Assembly (NCBI GenBank): GCA_041674405.1 | Contig: JBAYVT010000003.1 | Location: forward strand, 74,074-138,073 | DNA length: 64,000 bases | Source of the DNA: Patescibacteria group bacterium | Lineage (GTDB): Bacteria; Patescibacteriota; UBA1384; XYA2-FULL-43-10 | Reading direction: 5' to 3' | Shown here: in pieces, positions 6,551 to 57,961 of the stretch | Layout of the letters: every line of letters starts with the position of its first letter | How positions within the stretch are numbered: position 1 is the stretch's first letter | Translations under genes and position numbers: made by a program | Notes under the pieces: generated by a model | Told to the model about the DNA's origin: nothing | The model's input: the letters and a program-made list of their open reading frames with translations, nothing else | The model's database searches: none

Positions 6551-6575
6551 AAGTATTAACGGACATTTCTCTGGA

Positions 6576-7628: not shown

Positions 7629-7719
7629 ATATCAAAAGTCAAAGCTAATGTATTGTACTATATTATTTTTCGGATTTTAAGATGCAAATTTGAGATTTAA
7701 GGTTTGGGTTTTGAGCTAA

Positions 7720-8391: not shown

Positions 8392-8399
8392 GTTTTTAT

Positions 8400-9520: not shown

Positions 9521-9584
9521 GCATTATCTCAATAAAGTTTTATATGATAATTTGTAAAGAATGCCTACTCCCTTGGGCATTCTT

Positions 9585-10298
9585 TTATTGCGCTCCCAAG
9601 CTCGCAAGCAACACTTTTGGATCAACCCAGTTTGAGAGATCAGACTTTGTCGGAACGTAGCCGCGGACATCAATCCCCGACTCCTTGTGCAGCCCGAAAT
9701 GCAAATGCTTTCGGACGTTTCCATTGGTATTCGAGCATTGCGCACCAAGCTCGGCTAAATTTTCTCCAGCCACAACGCGATCTCCAACCTTAACAGCCGT
9801 AGTTGATAGATTGACGTGGCCATAATACGCAGTATAGATACTTCCGCCTAAGTTATACTCGATAACGATTAGGCCGCCATAACCGGTGACTGAGCTTGTC
9901 TCACGCACCGTGCCATCGGCAATTGATTTTGCAATAACCGGTAAATTTAGTTCGTTTGGAAAAATCTCGAGATCATCGGCAGTGTGATAGCCGACATAAT
10001 ATGTTGCATTAGGACAAACTTTTTTATCCGGATTTGTGGTTCCTCCCGGCGGATAATACACACCGAAATCATTTGCCATGATACGTGCAGCAAAATTATC
10101 GAGAGGATAAACCAAAGTTGGCACCGATTCAGTTTGTGAAATTGGGTTCTGGCTTGAAGAGCCTGAAGGCGCTGGATTTGTTGTTGTGTCTGTCGACTGA
10201 GAAATTTTAGCCTTCCTGTTCTTCAAAAGATAAAAACCACCACCGGCGGCAGCAAGTATTATCGCTCCAATAATGAGTAGTGGAAGGATTTTTTTCAT
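9585..10298 (-). CDS. M23 family metallopeptidase (LytM-like), membrane-anchored
   Basis: N-terminal TM. HxxxD (YHTADDLEI) and HxH (HLHFGLH) zinc-binding motifs. Confidence 0.8.
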   Translation of the reverse strand: MKKILPLLIIGAIILAAAGGGFYLLKNRKAKISQSTDTTTNPAPSGSSSQNPISQTESVPTLVYPLDNFAARIMANDFGVYYPPGGTTNPDKKVCPNATYYVGYHTADDLEIFPNELNLPVIAKSIADGTVRETSSVTGYGGLIVIEYNLGGSIYTAYYGHVNLSTTAVKVGDRVVAGENLAELGAQCSNTNGNVRKHLHFGLHKESGIDVRGYVPTKSDLSNWVDPKVLLASLGAQ

Positions 10299-10327
10299 CA
10301 GGATTTTTTAGCGATATCAACAGAAAG

Positions 10328-11023
10328 TTATTTTAGCGAGCTATCGCCATCATTAAACCCAAACTCGATGTGCGAGCGGTCGCAGAATGGCTTGTTCTTG
10401 GATTTGCCGCAGCGGCAAAGGGTGACGCGGTTGCGGACTTCGTAGGTTTCACCATTTGCAGATTCTACTGGAATTTCCCCTTTCACCCAAAGTGGACCGG
10501 AAATTTTCATGTCTGGATCTTCAATAATGCCAATAGACTTTTCAAGCTTTGGTTCAATAATTTTTCCCGTTTTCTTGTCGCGCACAACGAGACGGCCAGA
10601 CGGGCAATCGCAGCATTCTTCTATAAGCATTTTTTTGGAATCTGGGTCAGATGATTCTCCTACTAGATTCCAGGCAGTATCTCCGCGATCGCAAAATCTG
10701 CCCGAGGCGCAGATTTTGCTCTCATCATACATAACTGCATCCGGACCATCCAAAACTTCGGCCTTGTCAAAAAAATTCTCAAATTCTGCTGTTTCTGTGC
10801 AATCAACACCAGCTGTCATATGTGTTTTATCACAATATGGCTTACTCTTAGATTTCCCGCAACGGCAGAGGTGATAATGTTCACTCTTGGGAAATTTTTC
10901 GCCGTCTTTCCACCTCTCCGAAATCCCATTGCCATCGCCGACAATTATTTGCCTCTGAAGCGGAACATTCCCGGTCACTTCGTAAGGCCCATCTTTAATA
11001 ATTTTAATCCTCTTCTTTGACAT
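10328..11023 (-). CDS. CDGSH-type iron-sulfur domain protein (two CDGSH motifs)
   Basis: CRCGKSKSKPYCDKTH and CRCGKSKNKPFCDRSH match C-x-C-x2-S-x3-P-x-C-D-x-[ST]-H, plus additional Cys clusters. Confidence 0.7.
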   Translation of the reverse strand: MSKKRIKIIKDGPYEVTGNVPLQRQIIVGDGNGISERWKDGEKFPKSEHYHLCRCGKSKSKPYCDKTHMTAGVDCTETAEFENFFDKAEVLDGPDAVMYDESKICASGRFCDRGDTAWNLVGESSDPDSKKMLIEECCDCPSGRLVVRDKKTGKIIEPKLEKSIGIIEDPDMKISGPLWVKGEIPVESANGETYEVRNRVTLCRCGKSKNKPFCDRSHIEFGFNDGDSSLK

Positions 11024-11256
11024 TTTCGCCTCGACTTTATGATCTTTATGAACTTTAACTACATAGAATTATATCAGCTATCACCAAGTTATTATTGTAG
11101 AAGTTAACAAAAGAAGCTCTTGTATTCAATCATAATGAATCTGAGATGAAAGAATCCGGCGAGATGATGGAGAAAATGGATAAAGACATGGATAGTAAGG
11201 ACATGTCTTCGGGTGAGATGTAATTACAACGCTTCTTTTTGGCTCAAAGCTTAAGC

Positions 11257-11294
11257 AAAAAAGGGCGGTGAGAAACCAGTCTACAGCTTCTCAC
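11257..11294 (-). terminator. rho-independent terminator for the aminotransferase gene (stem gtgagaa/ttctcac, U-tract on minus strand)
   Basis: 7-bp inverted repeat with a 13-nt loop, preceded on the plus strand by aaaaaa. Confidence 0.4.
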
Positions 11295-11315
11295 TCGATC
11301 CCCCCTACTTCTTGA

Positions 11316-12491
11316 TTACCCCGCCTTCATGGCGCGGGCGATCCGGTCCAATCCCTCCTCGATCTCCAGATCGTTGTACGTAAGGCTCATCCGGAAGTAG
11401 CCTTCCCCGCCCGCGCCGAACGCCGAGCCCGGGGTGAGGACGACGTGCGCCGTTTCCACCAGATGCTCACAGAACTCCGCACTGGTCGAGAACCCATCCG
11501 GGATCGGCGCCCAGATGTAAGGAGTCGCCTGAGGCGGTTCGATGCTCCAGCCCAGCGAGTTCAAGGTACCGACGACGAGGTCCCGGCGCTGGCCATAGAC
11601 GAAACAGATGTCCTCGCAGGCCCGCCGATATTCTTTGAGCACCCGGGCACCGGCGAACTGGATGAAACGAGGGGTCCCATTGTCGGTGTTGCCCTTGTAG
11701 CGCTTCAGGTACGACAACACCTCTGGGTTGCCGACGGCCGCGCCGATCCGCCACCCGGTCATGTTAAACCACTTGCTGTGAGAGATGATCTCCACAGCGA
11801 CCTCAGACGCCCCTAGTACCTCCAGGATGCTCGGCTGCCGGATGTTGCCCAGATTCACCAGGCTGTAGGCGGCGTCGTGGACGACAAGGAGCTTGTGCTC
11901 CTTTGCGAATTCGACGGCCTCAGCGAAGAAGTCGAGGCCAGCCACCGCAGTGGTGGGGTTGTTGGGGTAGTTGAGCCAGAGGATCTTCGCTTTCTGGCAA
12001 ATCACCCCCTCGATACTACCCAGGTCGGGGAGCCAGTACGGCGGCTCGAGCTTCATGTGGTAGGTGTTCGCCCCGAACATGTGCTGGGCGATCTCGTAGG
12101 TAGGGTATCCGGGGTCAGGCACAATCCCGAGATCCAGCGGATTCAGGAAGGCCCCAGCGAGCTGGACGATCGCCTCTTTGGACCCACTCGTCCGCAAGAT
12201 CTGGTTGTCCTCGAGCGTGACGCCGAAGTAGCTCTGGTAGAACCGGCACACCTCGGAGTCGAAGTCCGTGACAGGCATGTCATCCCCGTAGCGAAACCGA
12301 TCGGGATCCGTGACATCGTTGGCGGCACGGACCATCTCATCCACAGCACAAAGCGGAGTGGGCATGTCGGGGTCGCCGATTCCGAACGAGACGACATGGA
12401 CACCGCTCGCCTTGAGAGTGTTGATCTTCTCCCGCAGCGAGGCAAACGGATATGGCGGCAATGATGCGAGACGGCCTGAAGGCTCAAGCAT
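11316..12491 (-). CDS. class I/II PLP-dependent aminotransferase (LL-diaminopimelate/Ala aminotransferase-like)
   Basis: N-terminal LPPYPFASL...SFGIGDPDMPTP. PLP-lysine motif SHSKWFNMTGWRIG. About 62% GC island in the AT-rich backbone. Confidence 0.8.
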   Translation of the reverse strand: MLEPSGRLASLPPYPFASLREKINTLKASGVHVVSFGIGDPDMPTPLCAVDEMVRAANDVTDPDRFRYGDDMPVTDFDSEVCRFYQSYFGVTLEDNQILRTSGSKEAIVQLAGAFLNPLDLGIVPDPGYPTYEIAQHMFGANTYHMKLEPPYWLPDLGSIEGVICQKAKILWLNYPNNPTTAVAGLDFFAEAVEFAKEHKLLVVHDAAYSLVNLGNIRQPSILEVLGASEVAVEIISHSKWFNMTGWRIGAAVGNPEVLSYLKRYKGNTDNGTPRFIQFAGARVLKEYRRACEDICFVYGQRRDLVVGTLNSLGWSIEPPQATPYIWAPIPDGFSTSAEFCEHLVETAHVVLTPGSAFGAGGEGYFRMSLTYNDLEIEEGLDRIARAMKAG

Positions 12492-12761
12492 GAACGAAAC
12501 TCCTCCTGGAATGTGATATGCGTCCCGAGCGAGATAAAATTAACACATTTTATCATTTTTGTCTAGTCAAATAGCAGCATGATTTGTGAATTTCAATACC
12601 AAGCGATCTTTACAGAACGCTTCATTTTTGCTAAAATTCTTGTGTGTTTGAGAGTTATTCCCTCCGTCTCCAGCTTGCTGGAGCCGAGAGTTACCCGATA
12701 GCTCCCGTCTCCAAGCAAAACTTGGAGCCGAGGTCTCGGCTTGATATAATCAAGACGGACA

Positions 12762-13019
12762 ATGGCAGACCATTTTATTTACATTTTAGTAAGTAAAAAC
12801 GCCCCCAAAACTTATATAGGTGTAACATCAGATATCGAAAAGAGAATATCTGAACACAATTCTGGCTCAAATGCTTACACCAGAAAATATAAGCCTTGGA
12901 AGCTTTTTTATTCCGAAAAATTTGATGATAGATCAGTGGCATTAAAAAGAGAAATTTATCTGAAATCGCACGCAGGGCGGAACTTCATAAAAAAGCTTTT
13001 TCAAAATATTCCCCGATAG
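12762..13019 (+). CDS. GIY-YIG nuclease superfamily protein (small stand-alone, UPF0213-like)
   Basis: YILVSKNAPKTYIGVTSDIEKRISEHNSG GIY-YIG motif. 85 aa. The last 10 nt overlap the tRNA-Asn 5' end. Confidence 0.75.
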   Translation: MADHFIYILVSKNAPKTYIGVTSDIEKRISEHNSGSNAYTRKYKPWKLFYSEKFDDRSVALKREIYLKSHAGRNFIKKLFQNIPR

Positions 13020-13084
13020 CTCAATGGCAGAGCGCTTCGCTGTTAACGAAGATGTTGCTGGTTCGAGTCCAGCTCGGGGAGCCA
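13010..13084 (+). tRNA. tRNA-Asn (anticodon GTT)
   Basis: Cloverleaf read by hand: acceptor tccccga/tcgggga, anticodon loop CTGTTAA, T-arm ggttcgagtcc, discriminator G and encoded CCA. Confidence 0.85.
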
Positions 13085-13221
13085 AGAAAAAAGATTGATT
13101 GTGTAATCAGTCTTTTTTCTTTGTTCAGTAGAATGGACTCGAACCAAGGATGGGGTCGGGAAACATGGGTTTCCCGCTGAGGAAAATACTAAAAACCGAG
13201 GGTTTTTAGAGTGGTTCATAT

Positions 13222-13247
13222 GTCCAGCTCGGGGGGCCAAAGAAAAA
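13222..13247 (+). repeat. decayed direct repeat of the tRNA-Asn 3' end (gtccagctcgggg.gccaa.gaaaaa)
   Basis: 13-nt identity with tRNA 13067-13079 plus a similar A-rich tail, about 150 bp downstream. Resembles an att-site scar. Confidence 0.5.
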
Positions 13248-13255
13248 TGACACTT

Positions 13256-14107
13256 TTATGATTTTGATCCTTGAAATGTCCCACTGCAGCGTCCCGAGCT
13301 CCAGGTGCCGGAGACTTTGCTACCGGAAAAAGTCATATTTACGACTGTTGGGGTGGAGCCAGCGCTAAGCGTCTCAGCCGCCTTACCATTCGAATCGATT
13401 TTTGCATTGCCGCCCCAAGGATTTTGAACCTCGCCGCCAGTGACATAGAAGGCTGTCAGCTCGACTGACGAGTCACAATTCGGCTTTTGCATTGTAGTTT
13501 GGTAATAACCGTCCCAGTTGTTGCTGATTGGCCCGCCAGGCAAGTCGGTCGTTACATTGGTGACAGTGTGGTGAATGTACGGCCAGATAAAGACAAAAAA
13601 GACGACGACTAAAATTATGAACATAGCAGCGACTGCACAGCCACTAGCAGCTGTCTGCTTCTTTGCAGCCGGCGGAGACATTTCTGCGGCAGAATTCTCT
13701 TCTTTTTTGTTAGATTCTTTCATCTTGAGATTCTTTTTGTTCTGTTTCACTAAGGCCCAGATTCCAAGGATAAAAATTGCCAAGCACAACAAGGTTATTC
13801 CGAGAACTAATTCGGTAGCATTTTTAGTTTTATTGCCAGTGAAAAAATAGGCGGTTGTCCCGCTCAGGGCCAAAAAAGAAATGATGATCAAAAAAATTAA
13901 AAGGCAGGAAAGACAACCTGTGTTTTTCGCCGGAGGAGCAACCGGTTTAATGTCCTTGTCTTTATTATCACCAGGGACGTCGCCAATCAGATTGCCGCAT
14001 TTTGGGCAGAACTTATCTTTCGCCTCGACTTTCTCGCCGCATTTAGAACAAAACATTCCCCCTCCGAAATTTTTAGGTGATCTGACAACATCACAATTAT
14101 ACCACAA
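13256..14107 (-). CDS. hypothetical membrane protein with N-terminal zinc ribbon
   Basis: CSKCGEKVEAKDKFCPKCGN zinc ribbon, then 3-4 TM helices and a C-terminal extracellular domain. Confidence 0.5.
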   Translation of the reverse strand: MWYNCDVVRSPKNFGGGMFCSKCGEKVEAKDKFCPKCGNLIGDVPGDNKDKDIKPVAPPAKNTGCLSCLLIFLIIISFLALSGTTAYFFTGNKTKNATELVLGITLLCLAIFILGIWALVKQNKKNLKMKESNKKEENSAAEMSPPAAKKQTAASGCAVAAMFIILVVVFFVFIWPYIHHTVTNVTTDLPGGPISNNWDGYYQTTMQKPNCDSSVELTAFYVTGGEVQNPWGGNAKIDSNGKAAETLSAGSTPTVVNMTFSGSKVSGTWSSGRCSGTFQGSKS

Positions 14108-17450: not shown

Positions 17451-18401
17451 TTAATTTAACTTAGAAAAAAGCTTCTCGAATATTTTCTCAACTTCATCTT
17501 TGTTCAAAAATCCCTCGGCTCCTATCGTACTTGTTTTCGGGCTGACCTCCGTCCGGTGATATGTAGCACCTTCAACTCGTTCGCTGATTTTTTTCGAATC
17601 AAACTGGCTTACCGATTCGCAAGGAGTGGCGCCATCCGGTAATGATTCGTAGCTATAGAGCAAAGAGCCGGTAATCAAATAATTCTTCACTCGAACTGCA
17701 ATACAAAAACGTTTTTTCTCGTCTTGGATCAAGAATACTGCTGGTCGGCCGAGCACCGTTCCTTGCTCATTCTGAAGCCCCGATTTTTCTCTTTCCGCCT
17801 TTATTTTCGGGGCCGAGCTCTTCATCAGGGATTGCATCTTGTCCATTTGAGCTTTTTGCGTCGGAGTCATTTGAGCTTGAACTACTTTGCTATTCAAAAC
17901 TTTTTCGAGATCCATACCGGCCGGTGCACCGGGGATTTGCGAGTTATATAAATTACCTTCCGCCGTGTCACTTTGATTCTTCATAGCTTCTCCGGCGGTT
18001 TTTTCGTCTGGATACTCGACGACAATTATATCTGCTACCATGTCGTACTCTTCAGGATGAGATTTGTTCATCTCTTGCCTTAGTTTCTCAATGGTCTCGA
18101 CGGTGACTCCCGGCATGTACCCAGAGGCTGCGCAAGCTTTCATCCCTTTGTAAAAATCCGCCAGATTTCCACGGGTCATTTCTTTCGAATATTTTACTCC
18201 GGTGGCCGCAACCGGTTCTGGCCCGCCAGAAATCAAGCCGCCATCCACCAGAGTGCGATCCATCTTAATCTCGGGGCTAAAATGACCGACAGAAACGACG
18301 GTCTGATTTACTGAAGATGATTTTTTGAACGATTTCCATTGGCTACCGGACAGGGCATCATCGATGGCTGAAATGGTTTTGTTAGATTTTTTGGCTTTCA
18401 T
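17451..18401 (-). CDS. hypothetical protein
   Basis: ORF with compositionally normal protein. No motif recognised. Confidence 0.45.
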   Translation of the reverse strand: MKAKKSNKTISAIDDALSGSQWKSFKKSSSVNQTVVSVGHFSPEIKMDRTLVDGGLISGGPEPVAATGVKYSKEMTRGNLADFYKGMKACAASGYMPGVTVETIEKLRQEMNKSHPEEYDMVADIIVVEYPDEKTAGEAMKNQSDTAEGNLYNSQIPGAPAGMDLEKVLNSKVVQAQMTPTQKAQMDKMQSLMKSSAPKIKAEREKSGLQNEQGTVLGRPAVFLIQDEKKRFCIAVRVKNYLITGSLLYSYESLPDGATPCESVSQFDSKKISERVEGATYHRTEVSPKTSTIGAEGFLNKDEVEKIFEKLFSKLN

Positions 18402-18595
18402 CGCGAGCTCATCATAAATTTCTTGCTACAATTAGCATTGTACCACTCCGCTACAATAATAAAAGTAGAGTAAAGCACCTTCTTGTGGTCGTGCAAATTT
18501 ATTTTAGCGAGAGATGAAAGAGAAAATGGTAATGTAATTTTGCGTTTATGATAATCAGCATTGTAGCACCACCAATGCAAGCGTATATTTAAAGC

Positions 18596-18958
18596 ATGAA
18601 AAAATATGCAACGGTTGAGGATTATATTTCTTCATACGATCCTGAAACTCGGGAGAAATTGGAATTGATGCGGAAAATTATTAAAGAAGCCGCACCGGAA
18701 GCCGTCGAATCGATCAGCTACGGCATGCCTGGTTATAAACTGAACGGAAAGCAGTTTCTCTACTTCGGCGGATTTCCTACCCACATCGGTTTTTACCCCC
18801 TGCCGTGTGCGATCAGAGAATTTTCCCACGACATTAAGAAATTCAAACACTCCAAGGGGGCAATTCAATTTTCCCTTGCTGAACCTTTGCCGATAGGGTT
18901 AATAAAAAGAATGGTTAAGTATCGAATAAGTGAACTGGAAGATAATAACTCGTGTTAA
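18596..18958 (+). CDS. DUF1801 (YdhG-like) domain protein
   Basis: MKKYATVEDYISSYDPETREKLELMRKIIKEAAPEAVESISYGMPGYKLNGKQFLYFGGF resembles the YdhG/DUF1801 family. Confidence 0.55.
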   Translation: MKKYATVEDYISSYDPETREKLELMRKIIKEAAPEAVESISYGMPGYKLNGKQFLYFGGFPTHIGFYPLPCAIREFSHDIKKFKHSKGAIQFSLAEPLPIGLIKRMVKYRISELEDNNSC

Positions 18959-33391: not shown

Positions 33392-34501
33392 CTACCCACC
33401 TTCCGGGCTGGTCAGGACCTCCTCAATGACCAGGATTGACCTCTCCAGATCAAGGCCATCCAAGATAGCCTCACATTCGTTCAGAATCAGCCTGGCGCCC
33501 TCCATCGCCGTTGTCTCTCCTGTCCTCTGAGTCTTAAGAGACTCGATCCGGGCACGAAGGGTTTCGATCTCTCCCTCGATTCCCTCGATCTCGTGATCAA
33601 GGCGGTCAACTTCGAGACGATGCCCCTCGATTTCTTCTCGCACCTTGTCGGACGCTTCCTTCAAGTCCTGGTACGGACCAGAGGCAAGAAATCTGTGCAT
33701 CCACTCGAGACACGCCCGGGATTCGCCATCATTCGGCCTGCGCCCAAGCATCTGCGAGATGGTGCCAAAGGCACAAGATGTGAGAGAGTAGTGCCCGTCC
33801 ACGCGACACAGATCCCGCTCCTTCACGCGAGCAACGGCATCACGCACACCCTCATTGGTCACTCGGCTCGGTGACCCAAGTATCTCGCCAAGGGCCCTCC
33901 GTGCGGCGCCCTTGACTTGGCCCTCGGTCAGCACAAGCCTACTCTTTGTAGTCATCCCGCGAATGATCTCGTAGAGCACGAGCCCATCCTGATCGCTGAA
34001 GCGCAAGAGTGCTTCCATTGCTGCGTCGTGTTCGGCTTCCTCGGAGTTGGGTGGTAGGACCTGTTCCTGTTCGGTGTGCTCAATCTCCTCAGTCTCATCA
34101 ACCTCGAGGGCCTTGCCAGTCACGACTGCGTCGAGGCGGTTGAGCAGTTCGATGATCTGTGCCGGGCTCGGGCCATTGCTATCGGTGCTATAGACCCGGT
34201 AGGTGAAAGTGCCATGCATGGCCCGCCGGGGCATCTTGCACCTGATGAGGGCGTAATCCCGATCACCGGGATTGTCTACGCGCACTCCCCAGACACGATC
34301 CTCTTTCGGGCCACTTGTGGTGTCCACATCTGGTATCGAGATGGCCTTAAAGGGTCCGTGAAGGCCGGCTTCATCGAACTTCCCAGCTAGCCATCTCGGA
34401 AAACCAGGTGGCGACCACGACCCTGACGGGTGTCTGGCACTCCCGACGACCTCTACGCTCGTTGTTCCTACCATTGCTTCGAACTGTCTACGTTTTGCCA
34501 A
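33392..34501 (-). CDS. hypothetical protein, GC-rich (about 60% GC), N-terminal globular domain, acidic linker, C-terminal coiled coil
   Basis: Long ORF with protein-like composition. LEVDRLDHEIEGIEGEIETLRARIESL coiled coil. No catalytic motif recognised. Confidence 0.5.
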   Translation of the reverse strand: MAKRRQFEAMVGTTSVEVVGSARHPSGSWSPPGFPRWLAGKFDEAGLHGPFKAISIPDVDTTSGPKEDRVWGVRVDNPGDRDYALIRCKMPRRAMHGTFTYRVYSTDSNGPSPAQIIELLNRLDAVVTGKALEVDETEEIEHTEQEQVLPPNSEEAEHDAAMEALLRFSDQDGLVLYEIIRGMTTKSRLVLTEGQVKGAARRALGEILGSPSRVTNEGVRDAVARVKERDLCRVDGHYSLTSCAFGTISQMLGRRPNDGESRACLEWMHRFLASGPYQDLKEASDKVREEIEGHRLEVDRLDHEIEGIEGEIETLRARIESLKTQRTGETTAMEGARLILNECEAILDGLDLERSILVIEEVLTSPEGG

Positions 34502-35141: not shown

Positions 35142-36518
35142 TTGAAAAAGGTACCGACTAACCGTAATCCGAGGAGAGGCAAGCTGGAAGGAGAGGGAAA
35201 GACCAAGCGGCTGTACCATGCAGTCGGCAGAGGATTTGGGGAGGTGGTGATCGTAGAGCAGAAGAACACGATCACCAAGCACAACGACCCCTCCCAGACC
35301 GAGGAGTTCGAGTCTAAGGGCCGCTGTTCCACGACATTCGCCTCGCGGGTTTTCGAGCTGCTCACCGCGGCCGGAATCCCCAATGCCTTCATTCGCCAGA
35401 CGGGCGACAACGAGTTTCTCATGCACAGATGCAAGATGCTGGGACTCGAGGTCGTCATCCGCCGTCTCGCGATGGGCAGCTACTTTGACCGCAACCCCCA
35501 CATGAGGCCCAAGGCTGGTGATCCGGCTCCGCGCCTCCACCGGCTGGTCATCGAGATGATGCTGAAGACCACGGAAGGGATCGTTCCGCTCTTGAACGGA
35601 AGCACGCACGACACCGGCATCCGCGATCCCAAGCGGCAAGATCCGCTCATTGTGGATCCATCGGCCGAGATCTGGAAGCTCGCACACCCGCATCTCCCGC
35701 TCTGGGACACCGAGTCCTACATCGGCGAGATCGAGGCCAATCGCGTGATGGATCCTGTCCATCTCGAACAGATCGAACGGCTGGCGCGCCTCATCTTCCT
35801 TCTCCTGGAGTCAGCACTCACCAATGTGGGTAGCCGACTGGCGGACCTCAAACTCGAGTTCGGCTTCCTGCCAGACGGAACACTGGTGGTCGCCGACGTG
35901 ATCGACCCGGATTCGCTCCGGCAAGCCGTGTGGAACAACGATCTGGACGCGTGGATAGACTTGAGCAAGCAGAGCTTCCGGGACGGCATAGGCCTTGAGG
36001 AAGTCGAGCGCAAGTACCTGAACGCGGCCATGCTCGCGGAGAGGATCCGTGTTCCTCGCCAAGCGCTCATCACGTGGATAGGATCGCCCAAGGACACCCA
36101 CCCGCCGGTGGACAGTAAGCTACTGCTTCACACCGGCATCACCCATGAGAAGGTCATGATCTCGGGACACAAGCAGCCCGAGCACGTTCTTCCCGAACTC
36201 GAGCACCTCCTCGCCCAGTACCCCGATGGCGGCGTGATTATCGCCAAGGTGGGGATGTCCAACGGCTTGGGCCCGATCCTCGCCGCTCGCACCTCTCTGC
36301 CCGTGATCTCGGTCGTCGCCAACGCGGCCCCGGACGATCACGGGGTAGTACACCTGGAAGATGCGTGGAGTTCGCTTCGCATGCCCTCAGACGTGCCGAA
36401 CCTCACGGTGCTAAGCGAGAAGAACGCCATCACCGCGGCGCTGAACATCCTTGCCCGGAAGGATCCGGTGCTGTACATGTTCCGGCAGTACGAGATCGAG
36501 AAGCTTGCGGCGGTGTAA
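35142..36518 (+). CDS. bifunctional SAICAR synthetase (PurC) / class II AIR carboxylase (PurE) fusion, PAICS-like
   Basis: N-terminal domain: EGKTKRLY...GIPNAFIRQTGDNEFLMHRCKMLGLEVVIRRLAMGSYF (PurC). C-terminal domain: ITWIGSPKD...ISGHKQPE...VIIAKVGMSNGLGPILAARTSLPVISV (PurE, HK as in class II). TTG start in track, uncertain. About 62% GC. Confidence 0.75.
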   Translation: MKKVPTNRNPRRGKLEGEGKTKRLYHAVGRGFGEVVIVEQKNTITKHNDPSQTEEFESKGRCSTTFASRVFELLTAAGIPNAFIRQTGDNEFLMHRCKMLGLEVVIRRLAMGSYFDRNPHMRPKAGDPAPRLHRLVIEMMLKTTEGIVPLLNGSTHDTGIRDPKRQDPLIVDPSAEIWKLAHPHLPLWDTESYIGEIEANRVMDPVHLEQIERLARLIFLLLESALTNVGSRLADLKLEFGFLPDGTLVVADVIDPDSLRQAVWNNDLDAWIDLSKQSFRDGIGLEEVERKYLNAAMLAERIRVPRQALITWIGSPKDTHPPVDSKLLLHTGITHEKVMISGHKQPEHVLPELEHLLAQYPDGGVIIAKVGMSNGLGPILAARTSLPVISVVANAAPDDHGVVHLEDAWSSLRMPSDVPNLTVLSEKNAITAALNILARKDPVLYMFRQYEIEKLAAV

Positions 36519-39943: not shown

Positions 39944-39989
39944 AACGGACAAATTCTACCATATTTGAAGCTAAAAAAGAAGTCCCGAC

Positions 39990-40720
39990 AGCCTAGAAGG
40001 CTCCCGGGAGATTCCTCGAAACCTGGATCTTCAGTCAGCGTCCGCGGCGAGCCGCACCTTGGTCCCTCCAACCGCTCCCACTATGGGCCTTCGGAGTAAC
40101 GCCCCTTGCAGGTTTGTTCCTCCCGTTGGGCTTCGTGCTCTTGGTCTTAACCTTACCCAAGCTAGACACCTCCCTGTAATCTACAGCCGAGATGGAAATA
40201 ATATAGCTGATCAGATTCAATTGGTCAAATGAAAGGAACAGCTCCGGCGAATGCCGGAGCTTACGACTTGCGTCCCAACTCAAATGAAGATGAAAGGAAG
40301 AGGGCTGCCGCAGAGAGTTTATAGCCGTGCCAAGGCATCTCTCTGCAGCTTGGTGCAATTCGGTGCTGCAGCCGTTGTTGCGATCATTGCTTCAATATAG
40401 GAGTATACTCACGCAGACCACCGACGGCCAGGCGCTATGGCCCGGCTTGTCACACCATGGGCTACCACCTCCTTACGGGAGGAGAAAAACGGCGACGCAG
40501 TGCCGCTTCTCCAATATTAATATAACACTGCAATATGCAGTGTCAAATAGCCTAAAATGGTGTATCCTGGGCGCGCGGCTGGGCGCGCCCAGGACCGGAT
40601 GGTAATGTGCGGCAAAGCCGCGAATCCCCCGGGATGGATTGGATAGGGGGTGGTTGCTTGACTTTGGCCGACTCTGGCCTTAAGTCCAGCGGGTATGTAA
40701 GATAAATGTTAGCACGAGAA
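39990..40720. other. GC-rich (about 57%) ORF-poor hairpin-dense segment: candidate structured ncRNA (RNase P-like motifs?) or decayed foreign gene
   Basis: No ORF over 110 aa, and those present are low complexity. Perfect hairpin ctgggcgcgc/gcgcgcccag at ~40567-40592 and several more. CCCGGCUU / AAGCCGGGCCAUAG-like strings at ~40435-40455. Confidence 0.2.
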
Positions 40721-40786
40721 AAAATATTGTCAATAAAATATACCATCACGAAGATGGTATATTTTTTAACCACAAAAAATTTATTT

Positions 40787-48864: not shown

Positions 48865-49070
48865 GCCGCCCAGAACCGCGAACGCCACCCCGGTCGGGGT
48901 GGCGTTTCCACGTTAAATTGCTATTTTGTTTTCCCTGCGGACTAAGGACTACTCACTACTATCTAGTCCTAAACCTCAATAACTACAAGGATGACCACCC
49001 CACTTCGCCAAGGCTACGCGGGGCAAGACTCATTTCAGAGCAAGAGTCGATAATAGATAATCGTTGTGCA

Positions 49071-51032
49071 TTATACCTCGATCACTACAGGGATGACCAT
49101 TGGCCTTCGTTCTGTCTCCGTATATAGGAACTCTCCCATGTCGTCGCGGATTTTCTGCTTGATCAGATTCCAGTCGGGCTGGGTTTTGGCTTCGGTGTGT
49201 TTGGCAAAAAGCCGTTTGATCTCAGCACGGGATTTGTGCACCAGCTGTTCGTTTTCACGCATATAGATGAAGCCGCGAGAAATGATATCGGGAGAGGTAA
49301 CAATCTCGCCAGTCTTGTGATCAACGGTAACAATAATGACAAAAATTCCATCCTGGGCCATTGCCTTTCTGTCGCGAAGAACGATGTTGCCTACATCGCC
49401 AACGCCGAGGCCGTCAACCATCACATAAGATGCAGGAACGCGCTTGTTGGTAACCGAGCCCATATCTTTTGAGAATTCAATTACCTGGCCGTTATCGGCA
49501 ACGAGGCAATGCTCTTCGTCGACGATTCCCATATCTTGGGCAATCTGCGCGAGTAGCATCAATCTGTGGCGTTCGCCGTGGGTCGGGATCAAATATTTCG
49601 GGCGGACAAGCGCGATCATCAATTTCAGGTCTTCCTGCTTGGCATGGCCAGAAGTGTGAACATCCATAAGTTTTTGATAGATTACGCGCGAGCCGGCGCG
49701 ATACAGATTGTCCATAAGCTCGGAAACAGATCGCTCATTACCTGGAATTGGCGAGGCCGAAAGAACAGTCGTGTCGCCTCTTTTTATCTTGATTTGGCGA
49801 TGTTCACCAAGGGCAATTCGGGTCAGGGCAGCGCGGTCTTCTCCTTGCGAACCGGTACAAACAATTATTACCTTATTATCCGGATAATTTTTTAACGCAT
49901 GAACATCGATGACGGTATCCTTCGGCACGACAAGAGCGCCAAGCGAGGTAGCAATCTCGTATGATTGGAGCATCGATCGGCCAACAAAAGTAACTTTGCG
50001 GTCGAATTTCTTGGCGACATTCAAAATTTGCTGAATACGCGAGATCAAAAGTGAGAATGTTGCGATGATTAGGCGCCCTTTGACCTGATCCATGATTTTG
50101 AAAATCGTATCTTCGATTTCTCGCTCAGATATTGAAACCCCTGGTTTTTCGACATTGGTACATTCGCAAATTAGCGCCGCTGGTTTCTCTCCGCCGAGCA
50201 TAGCAATCTGTGAAAAATCGACCGGCTTGCCATCAGCTGGGGTATGGTCAAATTTCCAGTCGCCAGTATGAATAACCAGACCTTCTGGCGTGTCGATCGC
50301 AAAACCCATCGCCTGTGGAATTGAGTGAGTAAGCCGAAAAGTCCTTACCTTAAATACCCCAAGCTGAAGTACATCTTTGCCAGCTTCGATCGTATTTAAT
50401 TTAGCTCCCTCGGCCAGGCCAAATTCTTCCATCTTGCCACGAATAAGGCCGATAGCAAGGGGCGATGAATAGATCTGGGGCGAGCCAAGCTTTTCATAGA
50501 TGTAAGGTATGGCCCCAATGTGATCCAAGTGGCCATGAGTGATGAGAAGGGCACGAATTTTATGCTTGTTTTGCTCAAGATACGAGACATCGGGAATGAC
50601 GAAGTCAATGCCTGGCATATCCTGGTCCGGAAACATAAGCCCGGCATCGATAATGATAATGTCGTTCTTATACTCTAGAACCATCATATTTTTACCACCA
50701 GTTTCTTCATTGCCACCGATAGGAATGATTCGAAGCTTTGGCTCTATAAAAAATTTGGTGTTTTTGCCTTCGGTTGATTGGGCAGTAAATCTTGGTTCAT
50801 CAACTTTTCCCGAAATTTTAGCATAGTCAAAAGATCTGCCACCCTCGGGTTTTTGCACAGGACGAGAATTTCGTTTATGCGGTGTTTTCTGACCGGATGA
50901 TCGGCTAACAAAAGCCTGATCGCCCGCAACGGTGCGCACAGGTGAAGAAACGCTGTGTTTTGGCACAGGTTTGTTTGCTCGGATGTTTCTCGTTGTCCGT
51001 CCACCTGTGTTTACTCTTTGCATTTTTTCCAT
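49071..51032 (-). CDS. rnj: ribonuclease J (beta-CASP metallo-beta-lactamase) with ~100-aa basic N-terminal extension
   Basis: HGHLDHIGA (HxHxDH). Beta-CASP motifs. IIPLGG-like start only after a K/R/S/P-rich 100-aa leader. Confidence 0.9.
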   Translation of the reverse strand: MEKMQRVNTGGRTTRNIRANKPVPKHSVSSPVRTVAGDQAFVSRSSGQKTPHKRNSRPVQKPEGGRSFDYAKISGKVDEPRFTAQSTEGKNTKFFIEPKLRIIPIGGNEETGGKNMMVLEYKNDIIIIDAGLMFPDQDMPGIDFVIPDVSYLEQNKHKIRALLITHGHLDHIGAIPYIYEKLGSPQIYSSPLAIGLIRGKMEEFGLAEGAKLNTIEAGKDVLQLGVFKVRTFRLTHSIPQAMGFAIDTPEGLVIHTGDWKFDHTPADGKPVDFSQIAMLGGEKPAALICECTNVEKPGVSISEREIEDTIFKIMDQVKGRLIIATFSLLISRIQQILNVAKKFDRKVTFVGRSMLQSYEIATSLGALVVPKDTVIDVHALKNYPDNKVIIVCTGSQGEDRAALTRIALGEHRQIKIKRGDTTVLSASPIPGNERSVSELMDNLYRAGSRVIYQKLMDVHTSGHAKQEDLKLMIALVRPKYLIPTHGERHRLMLLAQIAQDMGIVDEEHCLVADNGQVIEFSKDMGSVTNKRVPASYVMVDGLGVGDVGNIVLRDRKAMAQDGIFVIIVTVDHKTGEIVTSPDIISRGFIYMRENEQLVHKSRAEIKRLFAKHTEAKTQPDWNLIKQKIRDDMGEFLYTETERRPMVIPVVIEV

Positions 51033-51062
51033 TTAGTTTTTCCTTTAGTTCAAAAGAACATA

Positions 51063-51695
51063 TTATATTAGTTTTGTTTGAATTGGCTTATCGTCGTTAT
51101 CTGGTTTGATATTCCCTTTAGTCTCCTGCTCTTTGATTTTTTTAAGAACCGCTGGTACTTTTTTAAAATCGTCCATAAGCGTGCCTCGCAATCCGCCATT
51201 GTGCAGGGCTGCCGCCGGGTGGTAGAGGGCGAAGTAAACTTGGCCATTCGGCCGTTTGACCGCTTTGCCATGGAGCTTAGAAATCCCACCTGCTGCCGGT
51301 ATAAATGTATTGCATGAGTGCCGGCCGAGGCAAACGATGAGTTTGGGTTTTATAATTTCAAGTTGACGATTAAGATACGATTTGCAAGCCTCTTTCTCCG
51401 TATCTTCCGGATCCCGATTTCCCGGGGGTCTACATTTTACCGTGTTTAGAATAAAAACTTTTTCACGTGTGAGGCCAATAGAGGCTAGCATTTCGTCTAA
51501 GAATTTTCCGGCGGCTCCGCAAAAAGGGATGCCTGCCAGATCTTCCTTCTCCCCCGGCGCTTCGCCAACAAAAAGTATGTCAGCGTCGGGGTCTCCGCTT
51601 CCAGGAACAGTATTAGTCCTTGATTTCGAAAGTGGGCATAGTGCACACTTAGAAACTTCACCTGCAATAATATCGAGTTCTTCTTTCTTATTCAT
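51063..51695 (-). CDS. uracil-DNA glycosylase, family 4
   Basis: CALCPL...GEAPGEKEDLAGIPFCGAAGKFLD motif. Start moved to the internal ATG at 51695 (track start is TTG 51749). Confidence 0.75.
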   Translation of the reverse strand: MNKKEELDIIAGEVSKCALCPLSKSRTNTVPGSGDPDADILFVGEAPGEKEDLAGIPFCGAAGKFLDEMLASIGLTREKVFILNTVKCRPPGNRDPEDTEKEACKSYLNRQLEIIKPKLIVCLGRHSCNTFIPAAGGISKLHGKAVKRPNGQVYFALYHPAAALHNGGLRGTLMDDFKKVPAVLKKIKEQETKGNIKPDNDDKPIQTKLI

Positions 51696-51804
51696 CAAAA
51701 AGAGAAATAAATGATTAAAAAATCGCTTAATTAGAGTCCTGTCCCTCAAAAGTTAATCTCATTGTACCAGGTGCGAATAAAAAAGTCAATAGATAAAGGT
51801 GGTG

Positions 51805-51826
51805 CCCCCGCCTAGACGGCGGGGGG
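51805..51826. terminator. GC hairpin (cccccgcc tagac ggcggggg) at 3' end of hypothetical gene
   Basis: 8-bp stem overlapping the stop codon. Weak U-tract. Confidence 0.3.
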
Positions 51827-52261
51827 TTCGTGTTCGGTTGCCCGATCGGTGATCCGCTTAAACAAAGTTTCAACACCGATCAAAGGCATGGCTGCTTGGA
51901 ATGCAGCCTGTATGGTTGTGCGGTCAAGCGGCTTCCATCCGCTCGAGCCGCATTGAACAAGCGCGCGGACTTGTTCAAAAAGTTGTTCCGTCGGGACCCT
52001 GCCGGTAGCATTGGTATAGCCACCGGATATCCCGCCGCAGACTGAACGTGCTGTCAGCCTGAGAAGTTGGGCATTTGGTTCGCCTTGGGGCTTGTTCGTT
52101 CGGACAGACACGATTAGTCCTGTTCGGTTAGAATCATTCCAGAAGTAGAATTCGGATTCCTCGGTGCCATCATAGCTGCGCTGTCCCGTATAACATCCGA
52201 TGTACCGATATCCGAGAGGCGCCAGCTTTCTCTGAAGCCTTTTCAGCGCTATCACCTCCAA
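51812..52261 (-). CDS. hypothetical protein, moderately GC-rich
   Basis: 149-aa ORF. No motif recognised. Confidence 0.4.
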   Translation of the reverse strand: MEVIALKRLQRKLAPLGYRYIGCYTGQRSYDGTEESEFYFWNDSNRTGLIVSVRTNKPQGEPNAQLLRLTARSVCGGISGGYTNATGRVPTEQLFEQVRALVQCGSSGWKPLDRTTIQAAFQAAMPLIGVETLFKRITDRATEHEPPAV

Positions 52262-52433
52262 GCGATCTAAATTAATATATCAATAAGAGTGACATAAATT
52301 CAATCTAAATAAAGAGCCGGAAATGCAAGGCTTAAGAAAACTTTTTAGAAATTATCCATAGATTTTGACCTACTCGACTCTAGAATTTTCTGTTAGTGGC
52401 TGATTAGTGCTCGTAAATAATTTTTTGCAAATG

Positions 52434-52463
52434 TTGAATTTTCTCTCCGCCTGGTGCTACAAT
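52434..52463 (+). promoter_or_regulatory. sigma-70-type promoter for purN (TTGAAT - 18 nt - TGcTACAAT extended -10)
   Basis: Hexamers read directly from the sequence. AGGAGA SD before ATG 52509. Confidence 0.45.
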
Positions 52464-52508
52464 TTTTTTGAGGCGTTTCTACTCACAGACTACGGAAGGA
52501 GAATTGTC

Positions 52509-53123
52509 ATGAACAAGCTGTTGTTGGGCGTCTTGATCTCAGGAGGGGGCACCAACCTCCAAAAGATCATTGATCGTATCGGGGATGGCACCCTTTGTGC
52601 TGAGGTCGCTGTAGTGATCTCGAACAAAACCGATGCTTACGGCCTCGAACGTGCCAGAAATGCTGGCATTCGGGCTGTATTCCTTGACCCGAAAAGCTTC
52701 TCCAGCAAGCACGAGTTCGACCAGGCAATAGCCGAGGAACTTCAGCACTCAGGCGTTCAGCTCGTGGTTATGGCCGGATACATGAGGCTGCTCGGCAAGG
52801 AAGTCCTCGACGCCTTCCCGGGCAAGGTAATCAATCTTCATCCCGCTCTGCTGCCCTCATTCAAGGGGGAGCACGGGATTGCGGATGCCTTCGCCTATGG
52901 GGTTAAGGTCACCGGGGTAACCGTGCATTTCGCCGATGGCGAGTATGACACTGGCCCCATTATCGCGCAAACGCCAATCGCTGTGCTTGAGGACGACACA
53001 GTGGAGTCGCTCGAGCAGCGCATTCATGATGCTGAGTACAAGATCCTACCTCGAGTCATCCAGTTATTCTCGGAGGGCCGCGTCAAGATCGATGGTCGCC
53101 GCATTCACATCGACCAGAGGTAA
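52509..53123 (+). CDS. purN: phosphoribosylglycinamide formyltransferase PurN
   Basis: LISGGGTNLQ, VVMAGYMRLL and NLHPALLPSFKG motifs. True start at 52509 (track start 52407 is upstream read-through). About 56% GC. Confidence 0.85.
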   Translation: MNKLLLGVLISGGGTNLQKIIDRIGDGTLCAEVAVVISNKTDAYGLERARNAGIRAVFLDPKSFSSKHEFDQAIAEELQHSGVQLVVMAGYMRLLGKEVLDAFPGKVINLHPALLPSFKGEHGIADAFAYGVKVTGVTVHFADGEYDTGPIIAQTPIAVLEDDTVESLEQRIHDAEYKILPRVIQLFSEGRVKIDGRRIHIDQR

Positions 53124-53261
53124 GCCACCGAGGTTCGTCTGAAAAAGGCTCTGCACTCCTTTATCCTCTTCAGGCGAGCCTTTTTCTATTCATAGAATAT
53201 GATTAAAAAAATTCCCCGAAGAAATTCGGGGAATTTTTTCTATGAGATTAAATTTTTACAA

Positions 53262-55412
53262 TTAGTTATTTCCGGCCAATGCTTTCATTGAAAGTGAAAT
53301 CCTGCCCTTCATTGGGTCGACTTCAATCACTTTGGCAGTGACCATCTGTCCAACTTTGAGAACATCAGAAACCTTTTCGATTCGTTTGTCGGAGATTTGC
53401 GAGATGTGAATCATGCCGTCGATCTTCGGGGTGATTTGGACAATTGCACCAATCTCTTTTCCAGACATCCTGTCCTTCTTGATATCGATGATTTCCCCGG
53501 TGATGATTTCGCCTGGCTGAACCTCACGCATCATCGCCTTGATTTGCGAGATTGCTTTGGCGCCCATCTCTTGATCAGTTGAGGAGACAAGCACCGTACC
53601 GTCGTCTTCGATATCGATACTGATGATTTCTTTGCCACCGCAATCTTCGACAATCTTCTTGACATTCTTGCCGCCCGGGCCAATAAGCTCTCCTATCTTG
53701 TCAGGATTGATTTTGATCGATTCAATTCTAGGAGCATACTTGGACATTTCTGCCTTTGGCGCAGGCATGACTTTGGCTATTTCGTCGAGAATCTCAAGCC
53801 GGGCCTTTTTTGCCTGTGCTAGCGTGTCGCGGACGATATCCATAGTCAATCCCTCAATCTTGGTATCCATCTGGATCGCTGTCACACCATCGCGAGTTCC
53901 GGCAACCTTGAAATCCATGTCGCCAGAAAAATCTTCAAGTCCCTGAAGGTCGGTAAGGATTTTATATACAGATGCGTCTTCATTTGTGACCAAACCCATG
54001 GCAATACCAGCAACCGGTTTCTTGATCGGAACGCCGGCATCCATAAGCGCCAAGGTCGAGCCGCAAGTTGCCGCCATCGATGTTGAGCCATTGGATGAAA
54101 GGATTTCCGAGACTAGTCTAATAGTATAAGGAAACTCTTCGCTTGATGGGATCATTGGCTTTAAGGCTTTTTCTGCCAAATAACCATGGCCAATTTCACG
54201 CCTGGAGGCACCGCGAACGGGGCGAACCTCGCCGGTGGAGAATGGCGGGAAATTATAGTGGTGCATAAATCTCTTCGTGGTATCTTCTCCCATCGTGTCA
54301 ATCAATTGTTCCATGCCGGGAGATCCAAGCGTAGCGACGGTCAATGATTGAGACTCTCCGCGGGCAAAAAGGCCTGATCCGTGAGTGCGTGGAAGAAGGC
54401 CAATTTCAATATGCAATGGCCTGATTTCTTCCATACCTCGTCCATCGGGGCGTGAGTCATGTTCAAGTATACTCTCTCGCACTTCGTTGTTCACAACTTT
54501 GGCAAAGGCACCCTTTAAGTCAATCTGTTTGTACGTTCCCTCAAAGGTCTGTAGTATCTCCTGTTCAAAGGCCTTGATCGTTTTTTCGCGCGATTCCTTG
54601 TCAAGCGCCCGAAGCTCGGCTCGCAACCTATCTGCAACCAAATTATGAACCTCTGCATGAATTGCTACAAACGGATCGGGTGCAAATCCCTTTTCCTCTT
54701 CAGTAACAATTTTCCTGTGTTCCGCACCAATCTTTTTCTGAATATCAAGAACAGGCTGAATTGAATCAACCGCAAGCTTGATTCCCTCAAAAATTTGTTC
54801 TTCCGGAATTTCATTTGATTCGGTTTCAAGCATCATTACTCTGTCCTTTGCGGCAGCAACTGTCAGAAATAGGTCAGATGCTTCGATTTCATCCTCTGTC
54901 GGGCAAACCTTGAGTTTGCCATCAACAAGCGAGACATTTACCGCTCCGACAGGTCCCTTATATGGAGCCTTGGTCATCAAAAGTGCCGTGGATGCGGCAA
55001 TGATTGAGATTGCATCAGGCTCATGAACGCCATCGTAGGAAAGAACTGTCACGACAACCTGGACATCATTTCTATAAGTTTTTGGGAATAGAGGGCGGAT
55101 TGGCCGGTCAATTTTGCGCGCTGCAAGAATTGCCGCCTCAGAGGGCCTTCCTTCACGCTTAATAAAACGGCTACCGGAAATTTTTCCTGCAGCATAAAAT
55201 CGCTCTTCGTAATCAACGAGAAGCGGAAAGAAATCAACTCCTTCGCGGGTATCATCGGCAACCACTGCAGTTGCTAAAACAACCGTCTCGCCATACGTAA
55301 GTGTAATTGCGCCCTCCGCAAGCCCTGCTAATTTCCCCGTTTCGAACACTAGTTTCTCACCGGCAAAATCCACCTCGTAACGATGGACCTTATACTCTTC
55401 TACCTTCGCCAT
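53262..55412 (-). CDS. pnp: polynucleotide phosphorylase
   Basis: Two RNase PH domains, a KH domain and a C-terminal S1 domain (GQMVTAKVIEVDPMKGRISLSMKA). Confidence 0.95.
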   Translation of the reverse strand: MAKVEEYKVHRYEVDFAGEKLVFETGKLAGLAEGAITLTYGETVVLATAVVADDTREGVDFFPLLVDYEERFYAAGKISGSRFIKREGRPSEAAILAARKIDRPIRPLFPKTYRNDVQVVVTVLSYDGVHEPDAISIIAASTALLMTKAPYKGPVGAVNVSLVDGKLKVCPTEDEIEASDLFLTVAAAKDRVMMLETESNEIPEEQIFEGIKLAVDSIQPVLDIQKKIGAEHRKIVTEEEKGFAPDPFVAIHAEVHNLVADRLRAELRALDKESREKTIKAFEQEILQTFEGTYKQIDLKGAFAKVVNNEVRESILEHDSRPDGRGMEEIRPLHIEIGLLPRTHGSGLFARGESQSLTVATLGSPGMEQLIDTMGEDTTKRFMHHYNFPPFSTGEVRPVRGASRREIGHGYLAEKALKPMIPSSEEFPYTIRLVSEILSSNGSTSMAATCGSTLALMDAGVPIKKPVAGIAMGLVTNEDASVYKILTDLQGLEDFSGDMDFKVAGTRDGVTAIQMDTKIEGLTMDIVRDTLAQAKKARLEILDEIAKVMPAPKAEMSKYAPRIESIKINPDKIGELIGPGGKNVKKIVEDCGGKEIISIDIEDDGTVLVSSTDQEMGAKAISQIKAMMREVQPGEIITGEIIDIKKDRMSGKEIGAIVQITPKIDGMIHISQISDKRIEKVSDVLKVGQMVTAKVIEVDPMKGRISLSMKALAGNN

Positions 55413-57645: not shown

Positions 57646-57674
57646 TTTACAATTGTTTTTCTTTCTGCTACAAT
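57646..57674 (+). promoter_or_regulatory. sigma-70-type promoter for rpsT (TTTACA - 17 nt - TGcTACAAT)
   Basis: Hexamers read from the sequence. AAGGAAAT SD and ATG 57701 follow. Confidence 0.5.
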
Positions 57675-57700: not shown

Positions 57701-57961
57701 ATGCCAATCAAAAAATCAGCAAAAAAGACACTACGCATAGAGCACACAAGAACTGCACAAAACGACCTTACTAGGGCTAAGATTAAGGGTGCACTCAAAG
57801 GCGCAAAGATTGCTATAACCAAAGGCGAGAAAGATGCCGATAAAAAAATTTCCGCCGCATACAGAGAGCTCGACATCGCTTCAAAAAAGAACGTCATCCA
57901 TAAAAATAAAGCCGCCCGTCTTAAATCAAGGTTGGCAAAAAAAGTTTCTAAATCTGCATAG
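57701..57961 (+). CDS. rpsT: 30S ribosomal protein S20
   Basis: MPIKKSAKKTLRIEHTRTAQNDLTRAKIKGALK...KNKAARLKSRLAKKV. Confidence 0.85.
   Translation: MPIKKSAKKTLRIEHTRTAQNDLTRAKIKGALKGAKIAITKGEKDADKKISAAYRELDIASKKNVIHKNKAARLKSRLAKKVSKSA

Follow-up and report, generated by a model that had tools for sequence, protein, structure and literature searches.

We analysed purN, the gene for phosphoribosylglycinamide (GAR) formyltransferase, in a 64-kb stretch of DNA (64,000 nucleotides (nt); referred to as the window throughout) from a bacterium of the Patescibacteria group, which is a member of the candidate phyla radiation (CPR). The window lies within the 152-kb contig ENA ERZ27247358 k141_137659, and purN is found there between pnp and the gene for a family-4 uracil-DNA glycosylase (UDG), together with the following features.

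52434..52439, plus strand: −35-like hexamer TTGAAT of putative function, 18 nt upstream of the −10 hexamer
52455..52463, plus strand: extended −10 element TGcTACAAT (hexamer TACAAT at 52458-52463), 45 nt upstream of the ATG
52494..52501, plus strand: ribosome-binding site GGAAGGAG, read from the sequence, 7 nt before the ATG
52509..53123, plus strand: purN, GAR formyltransferase, 204 amino acids (aa), with the ATG at 52509 and the stop codon ending at 53123
53130..53192, plus strand: hairpin with T-run (arms 53141-53151 and 53176-53186, 100% complementary), the likely purN terminator
53196..53249, no strand assigned: AT-flanked hairpin AAAAAAATTCCCCGAA/TTCGGGGAATTTTTT between the convergent genes purN and pnp, a likely bidirectional terminator

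The purN product matches the Pfam family Formyl_trans_N with an E value of 1.9e-58 over residues 8-184 (the model has 181 positions), and it scores 232.9 bits against the PurN equivalog model TIGR00639 of NCBIfam, thereby passing the cut-off of 150.1; with the related models PurU, Fmt, and ArnA, it scores far under the cut-off of each. The best solved structure is the GAR transformylase 3AUF (213.7 bits, residues 4-202), and the motifs NLHPALLP (containing Asn-109 and His-111; N109 and H111) and YDTGPII (containing Asp-147; D147) recur at the aligned positions of 3AUF and 2YWR. We take N109, H111, and D147 to be the counterparts of the catalytic triad N106/H108/D144 of Escherichia coli PurN. 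The protein consists of one Formyl_trans_N domain of about 200 aa and has no C-terminal domain like that of Fmt, ArnA, or FDH. We conclude that the initial annotation of this DNA named the gene correctly and that, as judged by its domain and motifs, purN encodes a bona fide, standard PurN with predicted GAR transformylase activity.

Two start coordinates differ from that of the gene. The range given in the initial annotation begins at 52262, which is the beginning of an AT-rich spacer of 247 bp (52262-52508; G+C content (GC) of 0.34) upstream of purN and not the purN start at 52509. Further, the NCBI entry for the protein (MFA7244199.1, phosphoribosylglycinamide formyltransferase) is a 230-aa form starting from the ATG at 52431, so that its additional codons would overlap the −35 and −10 elements as well as the ribosome-binding site (52431-52508). 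Because the ATG at 52509 agrees both with the homologues and with the Shine-Dalgarno site, the deposited form probably carries 26 codons too many at its start.

The composition of purN was compared with that of the 49 other genes of the window, which served as the baseline for host composition, and the codon adaptation index (CAI) was calculated relative to the codon usage of the window. The GC of purN is 0.554 compared with 0.426 ± 0.037 for the 49 genes (z = +3.5), its GC at third codon positions (GC3) is 0.673 compared with 0.421 ± 0.047 and a maximum of 0.530 (z = +5.3), and its codon bias B deviates by z = +3.7. The GC at first codon positions (GC1) is 0.63. Amino-acid content does not explain the GC excess, because the GC3 predicted from the amino acids of purN under host codon usage is only 0.416. 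The neighbouring UDG and pnp genes have a GC of 0.445 and 0.475, respectively, and the GC profile rises at ~52.45 kb and falls at ~53.15 kb. The view that purN, at about 56% GC, is compositionally distinct from its AT-rich neighbours pnp and UDG is thus borne out (55.4% as measured, with a GC3 outside the range of the 49 genes), and the codon adaptation that had been proposed as a check deviates as well (CAI of 0.650 compared with 0.742 ± 0.025; z = −3.7).

The contig is of CPR origin. RecA of the window is identical (100%) to NCBI entry MFA7244192.1 ('Patescibacteria group bacterium'), all named RecA relatives are from the CPR, and the gene content is typical of this group, with the 5'-3' exonuclease and polymerase domains of DNA polymerase I encoded by separate genes, a sortase, and many proteins that belong to no known family. 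In the Logan assembly of run SRR6484325, contig L002 (5,044 bp) matches window positions 48999-54042 with 100% identity and spans both junctions of purN. A chimeric assembly, which had been raised initially as a circumstance that would overturn the acquisition of purN, is not borne out by this contig from a second assembler, nor by a contig from a different metagenome in which the gene order is the same (see below). We conclude that purN in the window is not an assembly chimera.

The latter contig (L044; metagenome JGI 3300050015) displays 75-76% nucleotide identity to the window. The genes for RNase J, UDG, and purN are arranged in L044 as in the window. After them, at the end of the contig and at the place occupied by pnp in the window, the opposite strand carries a gene fragment of 24 aa. 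The GC of purN in L044 is 0.571, and that of its flanking genes is 0.43-0.47. Between the window and L044, nucleotide and amino-acid identities are 75% and 78% for purN, 78% and 85-86% for UDG, and 75% and 82-84% for the N terminus of RNase J. The divergence of purN is thus about equal to that of its flanks, which matches the prediction of vertical co-inheritance since the window and L044 lineages split. An orthologue of purN with 68-69% amino-acid identity is found in another contig (L045), where its neighbours are other than in the window. A more distant relative is represented by a 603-kb contig (L089), in which RecA, RNase J, and UDG are 83%, 69%, and 68% identical to their counterparts, respectively, and in which the wider synteny is kept (pnp ... 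UDG, RNase J, FtsK, RecA, RecX, pyruvate phosphate dikinase (PPDK) ... DnaG, sigma-70). In L089, there is no purN between pnp and UDG; this interval (968-3557) contains a 360-aa gene of unknown function and a gene of the RhuM family. We note that the spread of the transfer proposed here rests on three loci (L044, L045, and the window), which were located through an exact look-up of proteins, and that pattern scans of genome and metagenome contigs with purN returned only relatives of ≤56% identity and no further CPR loci.

The closest relatives of purN lie outside the CPR. Beyond the window gene itself, the best matches are on four short metagenome contigs (69-78% identical), and the next ones are 59-67% identical. 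Among the best 120 matches, four are named, namely three from 'Coriobacteriia bacterium' and one from 'Actinobacteria bacterium HGW-Actinobacteria-7', and these closest named homologues are 60-64% identical; among species-representative genomes, the four top matches (55-56%) are from Coriobacteriaceae or Eggerthellaceae. The taxonomy of the best matches, another check proposed at the outset, thus points to Coriobacteriia/Actinobacteria. Two donor-like loci (L046 and L048) have 67-69% GC and a GC3 of 0.82-0.87, and their purN is 64-65% identical to that of the window; in L046, the gene order is purM-purN-purH, the classical arrangement. In a neighbour-joining distance tree with bootstrap, based on ~200 columns, the window purN groups with sequences P0002 and P0003 (96% bootstrap) and, with 61% support, with P0004 and P0005 in a five-member low-GC clade. 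These five, together with every high-GC homologue and the sequences from Eggerthellaceae and Coriobacteriaceae, form a clade with 83% support, and the Clostridia, Proteobacteria, Nitrospirota, and other sampled phyla fall outside it. The one CPR-type PurN compared, the C-terminal PurN domain of a PurF-PurN fusion on contig L040, is the most distant sequence of the tree set (31-35% identical to the window purN). The tree and the matches support the view that the nearest relatives of the window purN are high-GC, Coriobacteriia-like Actinomycetota and not Patescibacteria. Because purN is nested within the actinobacterial clade and has a foreign composition, the direction of transfer would be into the CPR lineage.

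The purN gene is under strong purifying selection, with a ratio of nonsynonymous to synonymous substitution rates (dN/dS) between the window and L044 of 0.087, compared with 0.03-0.12 for the flanking host genes. We compared the same two sequences at 88 four-fold degenerate sites in conserved codons. G or C is present in both sequences at 39/88 sites (with the same base in 29 of these 39), G or C in one and A or T in the other at 38/88, and A or T in both at 11/88. These counts fit an ancestral purN of nearly 85% G/C, close to the donor-like genes of today, from which both lineages have since lost G/C, each on its own. The L045 orthologue is already down to a GC of 0.505, a GC3 of 0.55, and a GC at four-fold degenerate sites (GC4) of 0.43. 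A stationary GC equilibrium was also considered and fits the site-pair counts as well, but it was rejected, given that 29 of the 39 shared G/C sites have the same base and that the L045 gene has decayed further. The transfer, judged by these divergences, is not recent, because it is older than the split of lineages that are ~25% apart at the nucleotide level.

We next describe the signals around purN. The −35-like and −10 hexamers are separated by 18 nt, which end in TGC, with 15 nt preceding the TG; the promoter written initially as TTGAAT-18-TGcTACAAT is thus found in the window, albeit in a loose notation. The exact 9-mer TGCTACAAT occurs in four copies in the window compared with 0.41 expected, and none of 100 shuffles reached four. 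One of these copies, at 57666-57674, lies 26 nt upstream of rpsT (57701-57961), in agreement with the claim that purN has the same extended −10 element as the native rpsT promoter. The looser motif TGNTAYAAT occurs 15 times compared with 4.4 expected, and 14 of the 15 occurrences are in the intergenic 17% of the window (binomial probability of 2e-10, rising to 2.5e-5 when AT-richness is generously allowed for), most of them oriented correctly upstream of a gene. A generic −35/−10 scan of the purN region yielded four sites compared with 2.0 ± 1.3 in shuffles, which is not significant alone. Upstream of purN, L044 contains GTTGTCT...TGaTACAAT and L045 contains GTTGATT...TGcTACAAT, i.e. a GTTGnnT element and an extended −10 element at a comparable place before the purN start. 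The promoter being kept in the window, L044, and L045, it would have been in place before these lineages split. We conclude that a sigma-70 promoter of the host's extended −10 type probably drives purN. The proposal of the initial annotation that the gene is transcriptionally domesticated is thus supported by the intergenic distribution of the motif and by its conservation in L044 and L045, with the use of the promoter itself being predicted. Separately, we note that two copies of TGCTACAAT stand back to back in one intergenic region (18424-18568), together with a TGGTACAAT, and that this pair resembles divergent promoters for the genes at 17451-18401 (minus strand) and 18596-18958 (plus strand).

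A ribosome-binding site is present at the equivalent place in L044 (GAAAGGAGG) and in L045 (GGAGG). The likely purN terminator hairpin lies within a fold of z = −5.5, and its 3' arm and T-run (TTTCAGGCGAGCCTTTTTC) are kept in L044. The AAAAAAATTCCCCGAA/TTCGGGGAATTTTTT hairpin is not conserved in L044, where a different hairpin is found. Searches against Rfam revealed no riboswitch or leader, either in the window at gathering thresholds or at the purN locus at E ≤ 1, and the terminator hairpin gave sub-threshold matches only; the purN leader, at ~45 nt, is too short for a purine or ZTP riboswitch.

The interval between pnp and UDG contains purN in L044, a 149-aa open reading frame (ORF) and purN in the window (51750-53261), and the 360-aa gene and the RhuM-family gene in L089. 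Because L089 holds other genes there and no purN, this interval is a variable spot among related Patescibacteria. About 620 bp of the window (roughly 51793-52420), including the 149-aa ORF, are absent from L044; a blastn alignment of the two stops at window position 51792 and restarts at 52513. The 149-aa ORF has no match in Pfam or NCBIfam, and four distant homologues (E values of 2.6e-19 to 5.9e-10) were found among 1.84 billion representatives. A promoter-like site lies on the minus strand at 52303-52274, and the 3' end of the ORF carries an 8-bp hairpin made up of G and C only (51805-51825). We note that this ORF has been overlooked by two gene callers and that one collection has a 99-aa form of it. 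The 12-mer ATGATTAAAAAA is present at 51711-51722 and 53199-53210, i.e. in exactly two copies in the 64 kb compared with 0.08 expected, one on either side of the segment that contains the 149-aa ORF and purN. As a target-site duplication, the ATGATTAAAAAA repeat was rejected, since its left copy lies in DNA upstream of UDG that is homologous in L044, with 9 of the 12 positions matching.

A second purine gene of the window, purCE, is located at 35142-36518, and the gap between it and purN is 15,990 bp, which confirms the distance of 16 kb given initially. Its product contains the Pfam domains SAICAR_synt and AIRC and is a PAICS-like PurC-PurE fusion, for which the best solved structures are those of silkworm and human PAICS (4JA0 and 2H31) and which scores below the cut-offs of the bacterial purC and purE equivalogs. 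Three close relatives are 74-78% identical, and further homologues are 43-49% identical; the named ones among the latter are mostly from Patescibacteria (Moranbacteria, Parcubacteria, and Minisyncoccia), with the exceptions of one Heimdallarchaeaceae archaeon and one Bacteroidetes bacterium. In one other CPR contig, the PurC-PurE fusion comes after purB. There is no purCE between PPDK and DnaG in L089. Because their affinities and their GC3 (0.67 for purN and 0.79 for purCE) differ, purN and purCE appear to have arrived in separate events and not to share a common origin. Besides purCE, no other pur gene was found in contig positions 66.9-146.5 kb (~80 kb). As a side observation, we note that contig L040 (Levyibacteriota, CPR) contains, at 6555-13721, a gene for the 709-aa PurF-PurN fusion (domains GATase, PRTase, and Formyl_trans_N) followed by purD, purL, and purQ, and thus a native CPR purine cluster that is compact and includes an unusual fusion.

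Overall, we consider it likely, and hold with good confidence, that a functional purN was horizontally acquired from an actinobacterium of high GC and Coriobacteriia-like affinity, came under a host-type promoter, and has since been inherited vertically under selection. The ancestor of a small Patescibacteria clade would have received the gene, which would have entered the variable stretch that separates pnp from the gene for the family-4 UDG. There, purN is probably transcribed as a single-gene unit, with a host-type extended −10 sigma-70 promoter, a strong Shine-Dalgarno sequence, and its own hairpin terminator. Its product would carry out step 3 of de novo purine synthesis, converting 10-formyl-tetrahydrofolate (THF) and GAR to formyl-GAR (FGAR) and THF. 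After the transfer, purN would have been passed on vertically under purifying selection, with its synonymous sites drifting from about 85% GC towards the ~42% of the host. The acquisition of purN, already put forward in the initial annotation, is in line with its atypical composition, its actinobacterial affinity, and its patchy presence at a syntenic site. Several points weigh against this explanation. The purN promoter is a predicted one; the host composition was taken from 64 kb only; the ~80 kb of contig contain no purD or purL partner; the label given to the donor rests on four named proteins and four named genomes with only 55-64% identity; the distance tree of ~200 columns has moderate support (83%, and 61% for the five-member CPR clade); and no integrase, transposase, or tRNA was found near the purN region as a signature of mobility. 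Such a signature is not required for transfer by recombination.

That an actinobacterial fragment was joined into a CPR contig during assembly or binning would account for the abrupt GC step at either end of purN, but we regard this as extremely improbable, given that two assemblers produced identical junctions, that the RNase J-UDG-purN order recurs in a different metagenome at 75% nucleotide identity, that purN is just 60-67% identical to any high-GC homologue, that it has diverged from its L044 orthologue about as much as the flanking genes have, and that its promoter and spacer are of host composition. The high GC of purN could also be that of a native gene, brought about by amino-acid composition, by selection on codons or mRNA structure, or by a local mutation bias. 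This explanation is compatible with the high GC1 (0.63), which many enzymes share, and with the persistence of a GC-rich gene in two lineages with heavily diverged synonymous sites. It is nevertheless very unlikely: the amino acids would lead to a GC3 of 0.416 and not to the 0.673 observed; the L045 orthologue, at a GC3 of 0.55 and a GC4 of 0.43, speaks against any fixed constraint; the same base at 29 of the 39 shared G/C four-fold sites points to common descent and not to an equilibrium that is being maintained; the nearest relatives belong to the Actinomycetota and not to the CPR; and the gene is absent from L089.

If purN was acquired, the lineage could have used it in one of two ways. As the preferred refinement, to which we give an even chance, the acquired purN replaces or patches a step of an existing pathway, i.e. 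it is a xenologous replacement of a CPR-type PurN such as that of the PurF-PurN fusion. The PurC-PurE fusion of the window is of a type widespread in Patescibacteria, other CPR genomes contain purB-purCE and purF/N-purD-purL-purQ, and 32% of the CPR metagenome-assembled genomes (MAGs) surveyed are complete for the synthesis of inosine monophosphate (IMP) (PMC11608272). Strong purifying selection on purN would, moreover, be understandable only in a lineage that has steps 1-2 and those from step 4 on, and it is because of these CPR purine clusters and this selection that replacement or patching seems more likely than the building of a pathway from nothing. The lack of any other pur gene within the 80 kb examined speaks against this refinement, as does the foreign composition of purCE itself (GC3 of 0.79), which may also be a recent arrival. 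The initial annotation had instead proposed piecemeal acquisition, in which a lineage that lacked purine synthesis would be putting the pathway together from several foreign sources, purN and purCE being two of its parts. That both genes are single-gene GC-rich islands (GC3 of 0.67 and 0.79) at separate sites, that both are missing from the syntenic intervals of L089, and that their differing nearest relatives indicate separate events agree with this proposal, which we nonetheless find doubtful: the purCE type is widespread in Patescibacteria, other CPR members have pur clusters (with the 32% of complete MAGs mentioned above), and steps 3 and 6-7 are not adjacent, so that neither gene is useful without the rest, which is presumably already present. 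Piecemeal acquisition is thus supported only in part, in view of the membership of purCE in a family common in Patescibacteria and of the native pur clusters of other CPR genomes.

Besides purN, the window contains four GC-rich islands of a single gene each.

11316-12491, minus strand: LL-diaminopimelate-aminotransferase-like (DapL-like) gene, a single-gene island; GC 0.61, GC3 0.81
33392-34501, minus strand: 369-aa protein without a Pfam match, a single-gene island beside purCE; GC 0.58, GC3 0.65
35142-36518, plus strand: PurC-PurE fusion, the second most GC-rich gene of the window; GC 0.606, GC3 0.791
51812-52261, minus strand: 149-aa ORF; GC 0.54, GC3 0.56

It is conceivable, though quite unlikely in our view, that purN, the 149-aa ORF, the gene for the DapL-like aminotransferase, and that for the 369-aa protein are transfers from the physical host of this bacterium. 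If so, the Coriobacteriia-like affinity of purN would suggest that this episymbiont lives on a high-GC anaerobic actinobacterium, comparable with Saccharibacteria on Actinomycetes, and islands at various stages of GC decay would constitute a predictor of the identity of CPR hosts from sequence only. Elsewhere in the window, we noted a stretch of 843 nt without a called gene (39944-40786, minus strand; ~50% GC) between the PPDK gene and a tRNA-Ser gene. Its minimum free energy is −331.6 kcal/mol compared with −270 ± 7.2 kcal/mol in shuffles (z = −8.6), none of the Rfam families matches it at E < 0.1, and we consider it a candidate large structured RNA.

The purN locus would provide a clean, datable example of a Patescibacteria lineage with a reduced genome gaining or repairing a biosynthetic step. 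The foreign gene stands behind a host-type promoter that has been conserved, is maintained by selection, and has so far shed part of its foreign GC. It does not change what is known of PurN or of CPR metabolism, and in practice it offers little beyond the correction of a start codon, a marker by which a small CPR sub-clade can be recognised, and a faint indication of partners in DNA exchange.

When compared with known PurN proteins (TIGR00639; E. coli PurN, 1C2T/1CDE; Symbiobacterium toebii, 3AUF), the window protein is alike in domain, length, motifs, and end-to-end alignment; we see no difference in the protein, and only the genomic setting differs. The window purN is a lone gene in a CPR genome, whereas that of the donor-like contig L046 is part of a purM-purN-purH operon. 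The purine genes of CPR type (PurF-PurN of L040 and the PAICS-like PurC-PurE of L090 and many Patescibacteria) belong to the same pathway, and purCE of the window falls into the latter fusion family; the window purN, in contrast to the PurF-PurN fusion, stands alone and is 31-35% identical to the PurN domain of that fusion. Inter-phylum horizontal transfer of metabolic genes into Patescibacteria/CPR was reportedly described by Jaffe et al. in 2020, and the window purN, which is already annotated as such, is a further case of this documented kind of transfer, although we found no mention of this particular purN transfer in the literature consulted, which included passages of PMC12455944. In this 2025 mSystems study, genes of nucleotide metabolism, e.g. 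thyA, are among the CPR gains. Such inter-phylum transfers resemble ours in that a single metabolic gene from outside the CPR has become fixed in a CPR sub-clade. What sets the window purN apart is that the sequence reveals where the gene was inserted, how its host-type promoter has been conserved, under which selection it evolves, and how far its GC has decayed.

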